Positions 2,088 through 16,963 are shown, counted from the first letter of the stretch. The stretch: DNA of 17,113 bases from Minisyncoccota bacterium (GCA_035531095.1 DATKTL010000042.1:1-17113), one strand, 5' to 3'. Numbers and translations are program-made. The notes: a model not told the origin generated them from the letters alone.

Positions 2088-2178
2088 AGGATTCGTTCGC
2101 TATATTGATAAGTTCTTTATAGTATACCGCTCTACACGGCGGTACGTTACAGAAACCGTGCGCTCTTGCTTCGAGCTG

Positions 2179-2313
2179 TTTGGGCGACTACAGGGAATCG
2201 GGGTCAAGTTTCTAAGCTCGAAGACTCGCTAAGAACTTCCTCCCCGGGCTCGCCGACAAGCACTCGCTTCGCTCGTCTTGTATACCGGCTCCGCCTTTCG
2301 ATTCCCTGTAGTC
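2179..2313 (-). repeat. tRNA-His-derived structured element: a 22-nt direct copy and a 17-nt inverted copy of the tRNA-His 3' end closing a roughly 135-nt rod-like structure
   Basis: 2179-2200 is identical to 2362-2383 (tttgggcgactacagggaatcg). 2297-2313 (ttcgattccctgtagtc) is its inverted copy. 2186-2200 pairs perfectly (15 bp) with 2299-2313. The interior holds imperfect hairpins at about 2199-2250 and 2251-2290. Confidence 0.6.
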
Positions 2314-2317
2314 TGCT

Positions 2318-2366
2318 CCAAAAAATATAGTCATCGGATACTGCGTATCCTCTTCGTTATTTTTGG
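2318..2366 (-). terminator. A-run / hairpin / T-run terminator-like structure that starts within the last nucleotides of tRNA-His
   Basis: Minus strand: CCAAAAATAacgaagaGGATACgcaGTATCCgatgacTATATTTTTTGG. The outer A-run and T-run arms pair, and the inner stem is 6 bp. Confidence 0.5.
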
Positions 2367-3527: not shown

Positions 3528-3632
3528 AATGCGTCCTTTCATAAGACTTGCATGGGCTTCGGGACCTTCTGTTCCGAAAGCGATACTAGCACGCTGGAAA
3601 CCAAAAGACACCCTTACGGGTGTCTTAATTTG

Positions 3633-3717
3633 TGCGCAGGGGGAGACTTGAACTCCCATGCCCATAACAGGCGTTACCACCTCAAGGTAGTGCGTCTACC
3701 AATTTCGCCACCTGCGC
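3633..3717 (-). tRNA. tRNA-Leu (anticodon GAG), class II with long variable arm
   Basis: Acceptor GCGCAGG/CCTGCGC, 3-bp D stem GCG/CGC, anticodon loop TTGAGGT, long variable arm, T arm GGGAG-TTCAAGT-CTCCC. Confidence 0.9.
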
Positions 3718-9927: not shown

Positions 9928-10005
9928 CAGAGATTTTTAAGGAGCCGTGCGACTATAAAAATCCAAGTGGGGTTGCGTAATCGCAAGCCCCCGCACATTT
10001 TCGAG

Positions 10006-10645: not shown

Positions 10646-10720
10646 GCCCTCGTCGTTCAATGGATAGGACGGCTCCTTGCGGAGGAGCTGATGCAGGTTC
10701 GATTCCTGCCGAGGGCACCA
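10646..10720 (+). tRNA. tRNA-Arg (anticodon GCG), CCA encoded
   Basis: GCCCTCG TC GTTC AATGGATA GGAC G GCTCC TTGCGGA GGAGC TGAT GCAGG TTCGATT CCTGC CGAGGGC A CCA. Confidence 0.9.
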
Positions 10721-10767
10721 TATTAAAAAAACGGCATGATGCCGTTTTTTTTAATATGGTGCCCTCG
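10710..10767. terminator. 58-nt near-perfect palindrome / bidirectional terminator that includes the last 11 nt of tRNA-Arg(GCG)
   Basis: CGAGGGCACCATATTAAAAAAACGGCA-TGA-TGCCGTTTTTTTTAATATGGTGCCCTCG, with A7 and T8 runs around a CGGCA/TGCCG core. Confidence 0.7.
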
Positions 10768-10802
10768 AGCACGCGCGGGGCGCGTGCGTGCAGGAATCGA
10801 AG
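10757..10802 (-). repeat. Inverted partial copy of the tRNA-Arg(GCG) 3' part (T-loop to CCA), interrupted by a 22-nt GC-rich palindromic insert
   Basis: Minus strand reads CTTCGATTCCTGC[ACGCACGCGCCCCGCGCGTGCT]CGAGGGCACCA, compared with the tRNA's GTTCGATTCCTGCCGAGGGCACCA. Confidence 0.6.
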
Positions 10803-10887
10803 ACCTTGCGAGCGTTTTATGGAGCGGAGCGAACAGAAAATCCGCAAGGTGTACTGAAACGGTACGTTTCGATAAGCGTACTCGCGG

Positions 10888-10904
10888 TCCTGCCGAGGGC
10901 ACCA
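10888..10904 (+). repeat. Direct 17-nt copy of the tRNA-Arg(GCG) 3' end (TCCTGCCGAGGGCACCA)
   Basis: Identical to 10704-10720. It lies 92 nt upstream of the repeat-protein gene. Confidence 0.7.
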
Positions 10905-10979
10905 GCTAGCGCTCATGCAAATGACCGAGATGCCTCGATCATAGGAATGCGTGCGATAAGGAGACTCGTATGCACGACA

Positions 10980-10988
10980 TGCTAGACT
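10980..10988 (+). promoter_or_regulatory. Extended -10 TGcTAGACT, 7-nt spacer, then the ATG at 10996 (leaderless arrangement)
   Basis: Plus strand reads acaTGcTAGACTtgatggtATG. Confidence 0.4.
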
Positions 10989-10995
10989 TGATGGT

Positions 10996-12159
10996 ATGAA
11001 AAAATACTTCCCTTTGCGCAGTGTGGGGGCACTGCCGCTAGGTGCGGCACTCGCTATTGCGTTCCTCGCCGTTACCGCCGCTCACGCGGCGACCACTATC
11101 AGCACGAATATCCAAACGGATGGGACCTTATCGGTAACCAGCACGAGCACCTTTCTCGGGAACGTCGGCATCGGGACGGCGACACCAGCAGAGAAGCTTG
11201 ATGTGATCGGAAGCGTGAACGTGTCGGCAGGTAGCTATTTCAAATACGATGACCTTCCTTTTGCCACAGCTTCCACCTCTCTGTACGACTACTTCACAGG
11301 CGGAGCAGGAAACCTTACGATGACCGGCTCCTACGGCACCGCTAACGGCTACTCGGCCCTCTACCACAACACCACGGGCAACTCCAACACCGCTAACGGC
11401 TACTCGGCCCTCTACTACAACACCACGGGCAATGAGAACGCCGCCTTCGGCTACGATGCCCTACTCTCAAACACCGGCGGCTCGTTCAATACTGCAAACG
11501 GCGCCACCGCCCTCTACTACAACACCACCGGCAACTACAACATCGCTATCGGCGGTGACGCCCTCCACTACAACACCACGGGCGTCGACAACACCGCAAG
11601 CGGCTATCAGGCCCTGCTTTCTAACACCACCGGCTCCTACAACACTGCAAGCGGTTCCTTTTCCCTCTCTTACAACACTTCCGGCTCCTACAACACTGCA
11701 CTCGGCTATTTCGCCGGTGAAAATATCGCCACCGGATATGACAACATCCTCATCGGTGCCAATCCGGATGTTGGTGGCGACCACCTGACGACTGGTACAG
11801 ATAACATCTGTATCGGCTTCAACTGCATCCTGCCGGGCGGGACCGCGGCCACGAATCAACTCAACATCGGCAACCTCATCTTCGGCACGGGCCTCACCGC
11901 GACCTCCTCCTCGACCTCTCTCCCCGGTACGCTCACTGGGAATATCGGCATCGGGACGAGCACTCCGATCGCGAACTTCCAGGTGGCGAATGGGAACAAT
12001 GCCACGACCACTATGGAGCTCGGCCGCAGCGGTCAGAACAAGGGCTCCTGCTTGAAGCTCTATCGCACGGACGGCACCGCCATCTATGCGTACGTCGCCG
12101 CCGGCGCGACCACCTTCACTCTCACGACGACCTCCTGCGCGAATGTGAGCAACTTCTGA
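10996..12159 (+). CDS. Secreted repeat protein, tail-fibre / YadA-head (Hep_Hag)-like, with at least 8 tandem 17-aa NTA.GY.AL..NTTG.. repeats
   Basis: Signal peptide MKKYFPLRSVGALPLGAALAIAFLAVTAAHA. VGIGTATPAEKLDV and IGIGTSTPIANFQV motifs flank the repeats, as in phage tail-fibre-like and adhesin proteins. The repeat period was read directly. Confidence 0.85.
   Translation: MKKYFPLRSVGALPLGAALAIAFLAVTAAHAATTISTNIQTDGTLSVTSTSTFLGNVGIGTATPAEKLDVIGSVNVSAGSYFKYDDLPFATASTSLYDYFTGGAGNLTMTGSYGTANGYSALYHNTTGNSNTANGYSALYYNTTGNENAAFGYDALLSNTGGSFNTANGATALYYNTTGNYNIAIGGDALHYNTTGVDNTASGYQALLSNTTGSYNTASGSFSLSYNTSGSYNTALGYFAGENIATGYDNILIGANPDVGGDHLTTGTDNICIGFNCILPGGTAATNQLNIGNLIFGTGLTATSSSTSLPGTLTGNIGIGTSTPIANFQVANGNNATTTMELGRSGQNKGSCLKLYRTDGTAIYAYVAAGATTFTLTTTSCANVSNF
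11338..11745 (+). repeat. Coding tandem repeat, 8 x 51 bp; the first two units are about 90% identical at the DNA level
   Basis: Unit 1 (11338-11388) and unit 2 (11389-11439) differ at about 5 of 51 positions (accgctaacggctactcggccctctac[c/t]acaacaccacgggcaa...). Later units are diverged in DNA but keep the 17-aa register. Confidence 0.85.
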
Positions 12160-13082
12160 TGACGCCGCGCGCACTGCTGCTTAGTCTTACGCTCGGGTGC
12201 GTCGCCCTGCTTGCGCCGTCCGCCGCGTATGCCGCATACAACGACGTGACGCTCACGACCTCCGCATCCCTATCGGTCGGCGGCTACACGCTCAATGTCT
12301 CGGGCTCGTCCGCAAGCATACAAAGCATAACGGTGAACGCGGACAGCTTCTCGGTAACGCTCGCCTCCGGCTCTGACATCACGGTATCCTCGCCGTCTTT
12401 GCAAAAGCTCGCCACCGACGTCACGAGCGACGTGACGGCTTCGGCTTGCACGGACTCCGCCTCTTCCCTCTCGCTCTCATACTCCGGCGGCAGCACGGTA
12501 ACCAACGTCATCACACCATCCGCATCGATCTGTGGCGCATCTTCGTCTAGCTCTTTAAGCAACTCTGGCAGTTCGCGTGTCGGTGCCATTCTCCCGGGAT
12601 ACACGGAGACCAACCCTCTCCCTGGCCCCTCGGTCGTGGCGACGAGCACCGGCACGGCCGCGTCAGCTTCGGCGGCAGTGCCGACCGCCGCTTCAAGCCT
12701 TACGGGCGCAGAGATACAAGCGGTCGTGGGATTGCTCGCCTCGTTCGGTGCCGACCAGGTCACTATTGCCGGCGTCGAGGCCGCGCTCTCCGGCACGACC
12801 GTCGCTCCCGCAACAGCGTACGCCTTCTCGCGCGATTTGAAACACGGCGATACCGGCGATGATGTGCGGGCGCTGCAAGCATATCTGAACGCGCACGGCT
12901 TCGCCGTCGCCGCCGCGGGTCCCGGTTCGGCCGGAAACGAGACCGGCTACTTCGGCTCGGCTACGGAGGCGGCACTGGCGCGATTCCAAGCGGCAAACAG
13001 CATCGCCCCGGCAAGCGGCTACTTCGGCTCGATAACACGGACGTTCTTGCTGGCTGGGCACTACCCGTCGGAACGACCATGA
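12159..13082 (+). CDS. Secreted protein with a C-terminal peptidoglycan-binding domain (PG_binding_1-like)
   Basis: Signal peptide ...LLAPSAAYA. Ser/Thr-rich beta-type N-terminal region, then C-terminal LKHGDTGDDVRALQAYLNAHGF........ETGYFGSATEAALARFQAANSI..SGYFGSITR. The start overlaps the upstream stop (TGATG). Confidence 0.85.
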   Translation: MTPRALLLSLTLGCVALLAPSAAYAAYNDVTLTTSASLSVGGYTLNVSGSSASIQSITVNADSFSVTLASGSDITVSSPSLQKLATDVTSDVTASACTDSASSLSLSYSGGSTVTNVITPSASICGASSSSSLSNSGSSRVGAILPGYTETNPLPGPSVVATSTGTAASASAAVPTAASSLTGAEIQAVVGLLASFGADQVTIAGVEAALSGTTVAPATAYAFSRDLKHGDTGDDVRALQAYLNAHGFAVAAAGPGSAGNETGYFGSATEAALARFQAANSIAPASGYFGSITRTFLLAGHYPSERP

Positions 13083-13088
13083 GAGTCT

Positions 13089-13109
13089 GATTCTTGCCGA
13101 GGGCGCACC
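13089..13109 (+). repeat. Degenerate third copy of the tRNA-Arg(GCG) T-loop/acceptor 3' end
   Basis: GATTCTTGCCGAGGGCGCACC compared with the tRNA's GATTCCTGCCGAGGGC-ACC (one substitution, one 1-nt indel). It starts 7 nt after the PG-binding gene stop and lies 50 nt before tRNA-Arg(CCG). Confidence 0.55.
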
Positions 13110-13159
13110 CGCGGTCCCGTCGGGCGCAAAAACAGTTTTAGAGTTAGGATGGAATATCC

Positions 13160-13231
13160 GCTCTCGTCGTTCAACGGATAGGATAGCCCCCTCCGAAGGG
13201 GCTGATGACGGTTCGATTCCGTCCGAGAGCA
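13160..13231 (+). tRNA. tRNA-Arg (anticodon CCG)
   Basis: GCTCTCG TC GTTC AACGGATA GGAT A GCCCC CTCCGAA GGGGC TGAT GACGG TTCGATT CCGTC CGAGAGC A. The 5' half is nearly identical to that of tRNA-Arg(GCG). Confidence 0.9.
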
Positions 13232-13234
13232 CTG

Positions 13235-13278
13235 ACAGAAATGAAAAAGCCCGCTTAAGCGGGCTTTTTCATTTCTGT
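13235..13278. terminator. Bidirectional rho-independent terminator between tRNA-Arg(CCG) (+) and rpsT (-)
   Basis: ACAGAAATGAAAAAGCCCGC-ttaa-GCGGGCTTTTTCATTTCTGT is a perfect 20-bp palindrome with A5/T5 runs. Confidence 0.8.
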
Positions 13279-13281
13279 GCC

Positions 13282-13548
13282 CTAGGCCTTGGACTTCTTA
13301 AGGGCGAGGGCGAGACGGCTCTTCTTGCGTGCGGCGGTATTGGCCTTGATGACGCCGCGCTTCTTCGCCTTGTCGATCATGGCGTACGCCTCCGGGAGGA
13401 GCTTCTCCGCAGCGGCAACGTCCTTCGCGGCGAGCGCCTTGGTGAGCGACTTCGTCGTATCCTTCATCGCGTCCTTGCGGCGCAGGTTGAATACGTGCTT
13501 CTTCGCGGAAGAACGTATCGCTTTCTTCGCTGAACTGGTGATTGCCAT
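13282..13548 (-). CDS. rpsT: 30S ribosomal protein S20
   Basis: MAITSSAKKAIRSSAKKHVFNLRRK...IDKAKKRGVIKANTAARKKSRL matches the S20 pattern. GAGGA lies upstream of the ATG. Confidence 0.92.
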   Translation of the reverse strand: MAITSSAKKAIRSSAKKHVFNLRRKDAMKDTTKSLTKALAAKDVAAAEKLLPEAYAMIDKAKKRGVIKANTAARKKSRLALALKKSKA

Positions 13549-13603: not shown

Positions 13604-14149
13604 ATGATACGGCAGATCCGCGGGAAGGTGCTTTCGATAGGCCCGGCGAGCGCCGTCATCGAGGTCGCCGGCTTCGGCGTCGAGGTGCGTATGAGCGCGC
13701 CTGAGGCGCTCCTGGTCGGTAGCGAAGCGGTGCTCGCGACCCACCTCACGCTCAAACAGGATGGCCTTGAGCTCTATGGTTTCTCAGACAGTGCCGACCG
13801 TGACTTCTTCGAGCTCATCCTCACGGTCTCGGGCGTAGGCCCGAAGACCGCCCTCTCGGTCCTCCGCCGCGCGACGCGCGATGCGCTTGAGGGCGCTATC
13901 AGTACACGCGATCTCCCCTACCTCACCAAGGTCGTCGGCCTCGGCAAGAAGAGCGCGGAGAAGATGCTCGTCGAGCTTGCCGACAAAGTCGGCCCGCGCG
14001 CGCACGACGACGCCGATGGCGAAGTCTTCGATACGCTCGTCGCGCTCGGCTACACCGAACGCGAGGCGCGCAAGGCGCTGCAAGCCGTCCCCGAGAGCGT
14101 GAGCGGGAAAGAAGGGCGACTCAAAGCGGCGCTCTCTTCAGGGAACTAG
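13604..14149 (+). CDS. ruvA: Holliday junction branch migration complex subunit RuvA
   Basis: MIRQIRGKV...VIEV.GFG.EV........L.....L.THL....D...LYGF....R.FF..L..VSGVGPKTAL..L ... GLGKK.AEK...EL ... ALGY...EA. The internal ATG at 13604 is used, because the upstream part of the track ORF overlaps rpsT. Confidence 0.9.
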   Translation: MIRQIRGKVLSIGPASAVIEVAGFGVEVRMSAPEALLVGSEAVLATHLTLKQDGLELYGFSDSADRDFFELILTVSGVGPKTALSVLRRATRDALEGAISTRDLPYLTKVVGLGKKSAEKMLVELADKVGPRAHDDADGEVFDTLVALGYTEREARKALQAVPESVSGKEGRLKAALSSGN

Positions 14150-16733: not shown

Positions 16734-16780
16734 CATGAGCCACAAACACCTGCCCTGCGGCAGGTTTTGTGCTTATGTGC
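16731..16780 (+). terminator. Long imperfect hairpin / rho-independent terminator starting in the last 3 nt of tRNA-Lys
   Basis: Core ACCTGCC-ctgc-GGCAGGT followed by TTTGTG. The outer arms GCACATGAG(C)CACAAA(C) and TTTGTGCTTATGTGC extend the stem. Confidence 0.65.
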
Positions 16781-16963
16781 TGGCCGGAGCTATGTGCGAG
16801 TCACCGAGTACGGCGAGGCGGGGTCGAGAGCGCTTAGCGGATTGCGAATACCTGGAGCAATTCGGTTAGCGACTCGTGACCATGTGGAGTGTGCGGACCG
16901 CGGGGTTATCCTTCGCAAGGGATATCCTCAAATTACTGCTATCGCATGGTAGTTTGGGATAGG

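Follow-up and report, generated by a model that had tools for sequence, protein, structure and literature searches.

Copies of the tRNA-Arg(GCG) 3′ end around a two-gene operon in an ultra-small bacterium probably stem from a trailer element and a separate islet

The window analysed here is the whole stretch of 17,113 nucleotides (nt) from a Minisyncoccota bacterium (GCA_035531095.1, DATKTL010000042.1:1-17113), an ultra-small host of the candidate phyla radiation (CPR) type. Between its genes for tRNA-Arg(GCG) and tRNA-Arg(CCG) lies an operon of two genes, encoding a secreted fibre-like protein and a secreted partner protein, and the 3′ end of tRNA-Arg(GCG) is present there in three copies, at 10704-10720 within the gene itself (copy 1), at 10888-10904 (copy 2) and at 13089-13109 (copy 3). 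The block is probably composite, consisting of a trailer (10721-10904) and an unrelated islet (~10906-13128), each of which would have copied the tail of tRNA-Arg(GCG). The tail copies come from two sources, copy 2 belonging to the trailer element and copy 3 to the edge of the islet. They are real, exceed what is expected by chance and do not form one pair of attachment (att) sites.

Results and discussion

Three copies of the tRNA-Arg(GCG) 3′ end

The sequence TCCTGCCGAGGGCACCA is present exactly at 10704-10720 and 10888-10904. In shuffled sequences, 0.04 matches are expected even when up to three mismatches are allowed, and two matches were reached in 0 of 200 shuffles. No further site was found in the window's own assembly, designated G000 (0.5 Mb, 57 contigs, 86% complete; other G numbers denote relatives). 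For copy 3, GATTCTTGCCGAGGGC (13089-13104) and GATTCCTGCCGAGGGC (10701-10716) are identical at 15 of 16 positions on the same strand, and the local-alignment score is 27, as compared with 16 ± 2 and a maximum of 23 in shuffles. By manual count, copy 3 has one mismatch to tRNA-Arg(GCG) and four to the neighbouring tRNA-Arg(CCG). The view taken in an earlier, sequence-only reading of this stretch, that all three copies are genuine, therefore holds for copy 3 as well. Extension of the homology upstream of 13089, which would make copy 3 part of a longer pseudo-tRNA, is not significant (p = 0.27); the length of copy 3 is only ~21 nt.

At up to two mismatches, copy 3 is the sole distant tRNA-end copy in G000 that shares a contig with its gene, from which it lies 2.4 kb away; the remaining matches in G000 are on other contigs, or lie no more than ~300 nt from their own tRNA, inside trailers. 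Copy 3 holds the T-loop bases GATTC, which are absent from copy 2, and it was therefore copied from the tRNA gene and not from copy 2. If the islet is bracketed by a pair of repeats, these are copies 1 and 3.

The trailer as a precise insertion

Contigs G005:C1 and G121:C4 share the left flank of the window, which comprises PilM, a 175-aa open reading frame (ORF), the leader/promoter and tRNA-Arg(GCG). In both, CTAGTGCTAATTCAAGTGACCGAG, the beginning of a unit designated the D module, is found directly 3′ of the tRNA end, and its equivalent in the window is at 10906-10929, one base past copy 2. The alignment of the window with G005 across the post-tRNA sequence has a score of 28, as compared with 15.1 ± 2.2 in shuffles, and identity between G121 and the window covers the final 25 nt of the tRNA plus one base beyond it. 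As the tRNA end joins D directly in G005 and G121, exactly the 184 nt at 10721-10904 are present or absent, with the 17-nt repeat bounding them. Judged by these alignments, the trailer is inserted precisely, immediately 3′ of the tRNA gene, and is accompanied by a direct repeat of 17 nt.

The sequence-only reading had interpreted copies 2 and 3 as attL and attR of an integrated 2.2-kb cassette. Both copies are beyond chance, and ORF calls agree that they flank just two genes (10996-12159 and 12159-13082). However, copy 2 is built into every type-A trailer (see below), including trailers without a cassette, and it vanishes together with the other 167 nt of the insertion at the empty sites in G005 and G121; the additional T-loop bases of copy 3 also speak against the pairing. 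Copy 2 is the terminal repeat of the 184-nt trailer rather than an att site of the cassette, and an attL/attR pair of this kind is very improbable.

A family of tRNA-trailer elements

Within the trailer, an inverted copy of the tRNA-Arg(GCG) end (10757-10767 and 10790-10801) is interrupted by a 22-nt GC hairpin, and a perfect palindrome of 58 nt spans 10710-10767. In a first DNA comparison with 40 relatives, not only the tRNAs but also ~140 nt at 10759-10900 found matches, the latter at many sites per genome and at 75-89% identity. The second type-A copy in G000 sits behind tRNA-Tyr and combines the common core with tRNA-Tyr ends. Another 20 copies have one and the same architecture, in which the tRNA is followed by a hairpin, an inverted acceptor and CCA, hairpin P2, an inverted T-stem/T-loop, the core (P3, P4 and P5) and a closing direct tail copy composed of the T-stem 3′ strand and the acceptor. 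The closing stem is formed by the inverted and the direct copy of the last 17-23 nt of the host tRNA.

A covariance model of the trailer (R1), built on 13 copies and run on 151 genomes of the genus, found matches in 70 of them, with up to 13 copies per genome. In a 55-copy alignment, which was fitted to R1 and hence leans somewhat toward structure, 93.8% of the cells are paired, 39 of the 46 pairs change on both sides and all seven helices covary; in slide controls, pairing falls to ~40%. Most copies (45 of 55) lie 12-40 nt behind tRNAs, of 15 isoacceptors, and both arms are 93% identical to the acceptor 8-mer of the host tRNA. Loop sequences are conserved among the copies, and in a trailer located in the spacer of G027 the sequence of P3 is wholly different with its pairing kept. 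No published description of this family was found.

The type-A trailers behind tRNA-Trp and tRNA-Glu in G017 have near-identical cores, including the variable P3 tip and P4, and differ in P2 and the arms. This likeness suggests that the core has recently spread, or undergone gene conversion, within the genome.

Four other candidate assignments were rejected. The best R1 match, in G117:C10, is not an orthologous Arg locus, as it sits behind tRNA-Glu. An IS110/bridge-RNA explanation was discarded on account of the absence from G000 of a DEDD transposase (IS110-type gene), and cDNA of a mature tRNA as the source of the inverted arm was discarded since the arms carry the gene-encoded bases after the discriminator and not CCA. 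On inspection, a hammerhead-like CUGA...CGAAA does not fit the required G8, A9 and G12.

Pairing at the DNA or RNA level

Mismatch cells in the 55 copies comprise 47 G.T and 50 A.C overall. In the internal helices of the trailer, where ~97% of the cells are Watson-Crick, there are 23 G.T and 24 A.C. A functional single-stranded RNA should tolerate G.U far above A.C; as a yardstick, 112 tRNAs encoded by these genomes were counted over their acceptor, anticodon and T stems, which gave 82 G.U and 8 A.C. The pairing of the trailer would thus probably be selected in DNA, or in both strands, and not in one RNA, because the mismatches are strand-symmetric and the arms reproduce bases encoded in the gene, not the mature CCA. 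An assignment of the strand from wobble pairs was abandoned, as single copies are contradictory and the 55-copy count is symmetric.

It is unlikely that 10757-10904 specifies a conventional structured noncoding RNA, e.g. a tRNA-like RNA that is processed with the tRNA and whose repeats form an acceptor-like stem. Such an RNA would account for the very strong covariation, for the conserved loop sequences and for the order on the tRNA strand (acceptor 5′, hairpin, T-stem 5′, core, T-stem 3′, acceptor 3′, CCA), which is the topology of a tRNA. However, G.U does not exceed A.C on either strand, as it does in tRNAs, and the inverted arm copies the gene-encoded post-discriminator bases instead of the mature CCA. 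Further, the hairpin and the element lie too close together for a promoter to fit between them, the other strand has no consistent promoter, presence and absence across species are patchy, and no curated Rfam 15 family matched in 10721-10995 (E ≤ 1). The strand-symmetric mismatches, together with the exact empty site, provide first handles on whether trailers act as DNA or RNA.

The slot between the tRNA-Arg genes in relatives

The two tRNA-Arg genes are separated by 31-41 nt in G023, G021 and G007, by 114 nt in G002, and by 163-176 nt in G013, G011 and G027, the last of which is from another family. Since they are adjacent in at least seven relatives, the operon between them is a derived insertion as judged by gene order, the two genes having been adjacent ancestrally, and tRNA-Arg(CCG) is the ancestral right neighbour of tRNA-Arg(GCG). 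The sequence-only reading had proposed to see whether the block is present, absent or swapped between these genes in related genomes; it is absent from these seven, and other relatives have other cargo in the slot.

In G180, the flanks match the window on both sides, the order being tRNA-Ser(TGA), ORF, tRNA-Arg(GCG), slot, tRNA-Arg(CCG), homologue of 13604-14140, Mur ligase gene and LTD protein gene, and the 720-nt slot contains only a D module and a 167-aa ORF. Different cargo is found in G008 (prephenate dehydratase), G003 (unrelated proteins), G024 (signal peptidase and an extra tRNA), G005, G014 and G121. Directly behind tRNA-Arg(GCG) and D, G014:C26 encodes a 343-aa reverse transcriptase (L158 1474-2505), and G005:C1 encodes a ResIII/DEAD helicase, an AEP-TOTE primase-domain protein and a Fic/HTH protein (L142 330-3431). 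In G121, the assembly places the same tRNA-Arg(GCG), together with 42 identical bases upstream of it, in two contexts, one with D and a recombinase and the other with an S49 peptidase and tRNA-Arg(CCG); no junction contigs linking the two were found in G121. The slot behind tRNA-Arg is a hotspot in the genus, which has received surface-protein operons, reverse transcriptases, TOTE/Fic defence genes and serine recombinases. Genomes of 0.5-1 Mb are usually thought to be poor in mobile DNA.

Edges of the islet

The left edge of the islet is the first 32 nt of a D module (Table 1). A 24-nt motif, a pair of small hairpins, a run of T and a long hairpin resembling a T-arm make up the full module (~130 nt). 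Surveys of the D motif, of the N-domain of the partner protein and of recombinases covered 222 genomes of the genus. The D motif was found in 30 of these (a control pattern gave 1 match), where it starts 1-3 nt past genes for tRNA-Arg(GCG), tRNA-Arg(CCG), tRNA-Arg(TCT) or tRNA-Leu, or past decayed tRNA fragments. D in relatives forms the tRNA-side edge of variable islands. In G121:C4 and G121:C7, it is followed by a convergent gene for a large serine recombinase, directly behind the tRNA-Arg gene, and an island in G015:C33, located between tRNA-Arg(CCG) and rpsT, begins with D and includes a large serine recombinase ~2 kb further in. When the fibre promoter region was compared with relatives to map the left junction, no homology was found.

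Among the modules at L149, L151, L145, L143 and L155, D is both conserved and structured; its small hairpins covary, and its T-arm-like hairpin has 13 bp. G180:C9 has two copies in tandem at a distance of 145 nt, and a small conserved ORF (MPETKEEI...) often comes after the module.

At the right edge, copy 3 overlaps a segment (13103-13128) that is identical to 10876-10901 at 20 of 26 positions. In this segment, GCGCACCCGCGGTCC resembles the invariant 3′ motif of the trailer; the frequency of the 8-mer CGCGGTCC is 28 per Mb, both strands counted together. The segment aligns to the end of a trailer in G005, located 37 nt before the tRNA-Arg(CCG) of that genome, where a decayed tRNA and a full trailer directly precede tRNA-Arg(CCG). 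The intact tRNA-Arg(GCG) of G005, with D and the defence cargo, is on another contig, the one that shares the left flank of the window. These likenesses are suggestive, and 13103-13128 is probably the tip of an older trailer.

Large serine recombinases were found in 132 of the 222 genomes (0.4-1 Mb), with up to seven per genome, which is a striking load. In G000, a 528-aa large serine recombinase encoded at C3 27256-28850 (L079) ends inside an antisense tRNA-Thr(GGT) (...PRVGIEPTT...) and has an ImmA/IrrE-like gene beside it; this is probably a separate element integrated at tRNA-Thr.

Table 1. Coordinates of features at the tRNA-Arg locus, counted from the first base of the window.
Feature	Coordinates	Strand	Remarks
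tRNA-Arg(GCG), CCA encoded	10646-10720	+	ARAGORN; Rfam tRNA 61.9 bits; last 17 nt are copy 1
A/T-flanked hairpin resembling a two-way terminator	10721-10756		Centre of the 58-nt palindrome; initial 36 nt of the insertion
Type-A tRNA-trailer element, 148 nt	10757-10904		R1 score 169.8 bits
Trailer, inverted acceptor and CCA copy	10757-10767		
Trailer, hairpin P2	10769-10787		
Trailer, inverted T-stem and T-loop copy	10790-10801		
Trailer, P3	10803-10850		
Trailer, P4	10856-10870		GUA triloop
Trailer, P5	10876-10885		
Trailer, direct tRNA-end copy (copy 2)	10888-10904		
D module, first 32 nt (CTAGCGCTCATGCAAATGACCGAG and ATGCCTCG)	10906-10937	+	Left edge of the islet
Extended -10-like box, TGcTAGACT	10980-10988	+	Ends 7 nt before the fibre ATG; read directly, not called in a consensus scan
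Secreted fibre-like protein, 387 aa	10996-12159	+	Signal peptide, conserved ATTISTNIQTDGTLSV N-domain, repeats, conserved C-domain
Secreted partner protein, 307 aa	12159-13082	+	Signal peptide, unique N-domain, C-terminal peptidoglycan-binding domain
Copy 3 (GATTCTTGCCGAGGGCGCACC), decayed tRNA-Arg(GCG) 3′ end	13089-13109	+	Spans T-loop to acceptor
Probable 3′ tip of an older type-A trailer (GCGCACCCGCGGTCC and a degenerate acceptor copy)	13103-13128	+	42 nt before tRNA-Arg(CCG)
tRNA-Arg(CCG)	13160-13232	+	ARAGORN; a terminator palindrome and minus-strand rpsT come next

The fibre and partner operon

tRNA genes were called using ARAGORN and RNA families using Rfam 15 at E ≤ 1, and proteins were compared with Pfam, NCBIfam, PHROG and PDB sequences. 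The fibre-like protein includes ~7 repeats of 17 residues (51-nt period), which are rich in N, T and G, and matches PHROG families of virion-structural and tail-spike proteins (4e-27 to 1e-18); it has no match in Pfam, NCBIfam or PDB sequences. The start of the partner gene overlaps the stop of the fibre gene (ATGA), and residues 232-297 of its product match PG_binding_1 (PF01471; 49 bits with a cut-off of 23, 6.9e-13). Given its -10-like box (Table 1), the fibre gene appears to have a leaderless arrangement. It is a reasonable inference from the domain content that the wall-anchored partner holds a variable fibre.

The N-domain of the partner is encoded, in single copy, by 21 of the 222 genomes, and at the loci examined in relatives the partner gene is always paired with a gene for a fibre-like protein. 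None of 13 partner loci (11 genomes of the genus, G023 and one metagenome contig) has a tRNA within ~1.5 kb, and in seven of them the upstream gene encodes a signal peptide and the ATTISTNI N-domain. In G097, G235, G052, G230, G073 and G066, the pair lies between homologues of genes in G000:C15 and G000:C47. Given this conserved other locus in relatives and the ordinary composition of both genes (see below), the operon is native to the lineage and its position is derived.

At 1-220 of G000:C15, the palindrome TTGAGTAAGGTTCGACCTTACTCAA occurs twice at the contig end. It is probably a repeat of the repetitive extragenic palindromic (REP) kind that caused the break in the assembly at the ancestral site of the operon.

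The same pair is present in a metagenome contig (L080), where the C-domain of the fibre is 83% identical and the middle is quite different. In a metagenome scan for near-identical strains, only one locus was found, which is 49% identical. The fibre proteins of the window, L080 (232-1152) and L116-L121 have the signal peptide and the ATTISTNI N-domain in common, and their middles differ completely. Several of them share one of two alternative C-domains, and the middle consists of 17-residue repeats in the window and of other repeats elsewhere. This pattern suggests that the exposed part of the fibre is swapped as a module. Conserved ends and a swapped middle are what one would expect of a fibre that makes contact with a host or a phage.

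Related features are known from phage tail-fibre and tail-spike proteins and from trimeric-autotransporter-like proteins, with which the fibre shares its 17-residue N/T/G-rich repeats matching PHROG families, the signal peptide and a PG_binding_1 partner. Unlike the case of phage tail genes, no other phage gene is near the window fibre, and the fibres of relatives keep their N- and C-domains around quite different middles.

Origin of the block

In the explanation considered probable here, the trailer is one 184-nt, gene-less folded element (hairpin plus 148 nt) and the source of copy 2, and the islet would be what remains of a small island that occupied the slot separating tRNA-Arg(GCG) from tRNA-Arg(CCG). 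The truncated D would be its left edge, and a decayed second tRNA-Arg(GCG) tail with the tip of an older trailer its right edge. This far edge would join what formerly followed the tRNA, namely the old trailer and then tRNA-Arg(CCG). The extra tRNA copy would have stayed intact in G121, become a pseudogene in G005 and been reduced in G000 to a relic of 21 nt. We infer that the operon entered the slot via recombination at the tRNA-Arg(GCG) end, which may have been site-specific or have depended on homology of tRNA-linked modules, and that the recombinase was later lost or acts in trans. The redundant tRNA copy would then have decayed, and the present trailer, nested between the tRNA and D, would have entered or been kept afterwards. 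Recombination at the tRNA site, as put forward in the sequence-only reading, survives in part: the derived insertion, the variable slot and copy 3 speak for it, the bracket formed by copies 2 and 3 was wrong, and the mechanism is an inferred one.

Several observations weigh against this explanation. The far end of the G015 island, whose serine recombinase is intact, lacks a copy of the tRNA end, and a serine-recombinase event alone therefore does not explain copy 3. As already remarked in the sequence-only reading, no recombinase is encoded within the block, neither of its two ORFs being one, and the recombinases of the 86%-complete G000 assembly are an XerC/D-like tyrosine recombinase and the one large serine recombinase near tRNA-Thr. 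The covariance model, when run on 12900-13300, does not call the older trailer tip, the evidence for which is the 20 of 26 matches and one 8-mer. For the polarity of the trailer, gain in G000 and precise loss in G005 and G121 are both compatible with the data, and the two contexts in G121 may be a duplication or two alleles. The neighbouring genes in G000 C15 and C47 end at contig starts, placing the ancestral site of the operon in an assembly gap, and relocation is therefore indistinguishable from acquisition of a second copy. Finally, the GC content, the GC content at third codon positions (GC3) and the codon bias of both genes fall within the 14th-80th percentiles of the genome. A compositional deviation, the search for which had been proposed in the sequence-only reading, was thus not found: GC3 is 0.75 and 0.74, with a genome median of 0.78, codon bias is at the 60th-67th percentile, and codon usage is genome-typical.

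A doubtful but serious alternative is that the tRNA repeats were not involved, and that the operon arrived by ordinary rearrangement, through illegitimate recombination or through homologous recombination among the abundant small repeats, copy 3 being a relic of a second tandem trailer. Tandem trailers with tail copies do exist, behind tRNA-Cys in G000 (two extra) and tRNA-Glu in G017 (two units), and other types of trailer, e.g. that of tRNA-His, end in a copy that starts in the T-loop, like copy 3. In addition, synteny in the genus is fluid, REP-like palindromes are present at the contig break, and the locus has neither a recombinase nor a compositional signal. However, copy 3 is 2.4 kb distant from its gene and has no equal in G000 as a distant copy on the same contig, and the left edge consists of a truncated D, a module found elsewhere at the border of islands that carry recombinases. 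The layout in G005 is also alike, with an intact tRNA, D and cargo, and a decayed tRNA with a trailer before tRNA-Arg(CCG).

Homologous recombination between the two tRNA-Arg paralogues, exchanging the DNA between them, had also been proposed in the sequence-only reading and is scarcely credible. The genes are 81% identical across 74 nt in direct orientation, and the content between them varies by species, but the longest exact stretches that they share are short, no hybrid tRNA was found, each gene having kept its own anticodon arm and acceptor in all relatives inspected, and copy 3, which is GCG-type, is located outside the tRNA-Arg(CCG) gene. Nothing at the locus points to such an exchange.

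Beyond the composite origin of the block, it is conceivable, and distinctly improbable, that the trailer is a self-tailoring DNA element, which writes an inverted and a direct copy of any tRNA tail behind which it lands and so provides a spare copy of the tRNA end downstream of the gene. At this spare copy, D-module islands with serine recombinases, and remnants that lack the recombinase, such as the present islet, could dock and swap cargo, sparing the tRNA. If true, cassettes would be exchanged at the block as a layered site, poor in integrases and peculiar to ultra-small bacteria.

Comparison with known systems

Islands integrated at tRNA genes are delimited by a regenerated tRNA and a displaced tRNA fragment (Islander/TIGER, PMC4383910; tycheposons, bioRxiv 10.1101/2020.12.28.424599). 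The islet resembles these in that an intact tRNA bounds it on one side and a directly oriented tRNA 3′ fragment on the other, in its accessory cargo that varies between relatives, and in the unoccupied arrangement in relatives. It would be a decayed member of the tRNA-associated genomic islands, a known kind. Unlike them, it has no integrase, only 2.2 kb and two genes, its composition is native, its cargo is the lineage's own operon from another locus, and the recombinases of relatives are large serine recombinases. Displaced tRNA fragments are usually created by tyrosine integrases, and serine recombinases normally leave no direct repeat of 16-21 nt. Elements with large serine recombinases of the phiC31/Bxb1 type are matched by G121, in which a convergent Resolvase + Recombinase + Zn_ribbon gene lies beside D behind tRNA-Arg. 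In contrast, the window retains only 32 nt of D and lacks the recombinase, and its copy 3 repeat, which is a poor fit, has no counterpart in the G015 island.

The closest analogues of the trailer are cis-mobilizable elements (CIMEs), miniature inverted-repeat transposable elements (MITEs), REP sequences and bacterial interspersed mosaic elements (BIMEs), which are likewise short, gene-less, multi-copy and folded, with a direct target repeat and precise presence or absence. MITEs have fixed terminal inverted repeats in common with an autonomous IS and a short target duplication. The arms of the trailer, by contrast, are not fixed and match the host tRNA, the direct repeat is at least 17 nt, and the element carries within it an inverted copy of the target. 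We know of no cognate transposase or integrase for the trailer. The RtT repeats of the Escherichia coli tyrT operon (Rfam RF00391) likewise lie downstream of a tRNA gene as repeated units that include tRNA 3′-end copies, but the trailer has no Rfam match, a different core, at least 15 isoacceptors as hosts and an inverted copy.

What is new here is the separation of two sources of repeats, the exact empty site, the strand-symmetric mismatches, and the link between the D module and islands with serine recombinases or defence genes. As trailers themselves make repeats of the tRNA tail, such repeats should not be taken for island borders in these genomes until trailer elements have been subtracted.

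Other tRNA-linked features of the window

Trailers with another core (GGCGGAGC..CGCGAGGCGGG), designated type B, are found in the window at 2130-2364 (minus strand) and 16735-16900. Their hosts are tRNA-His and tRNA-Lys(TTT), and the tRNA-His copy has an exact 18-nt direct copy of the tRNA end and also an inverted one. Elsewhere in G000, type B is found behind tRNA-Asp, tRNA-Glu(TTC) and tRNA-Cys (two in tandem). At 3632-3717 (minus strand), ARAGORN called an 86-nt tRNA with a two-base "anticodon (tg)", of undetermined identity, which scores 49 bits with the Rfam tRNA model.

A third small module, consisting of GAGATTTTTAAGGAGCGAAGCGACTATAAAAATCCAAGTG and a hairpin, follows tRNA-Ser(TGA) and tRNA-Ser(CGA), at 9929-9995 of the window and at 29902-29970 of G000:C11. 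The GAGATTTTTAAGGAGCGAAGCGACTATAAAAATCCAAGTG module also occurs as a ~75-nt insertion inside type-A trailers of G024 and G009.

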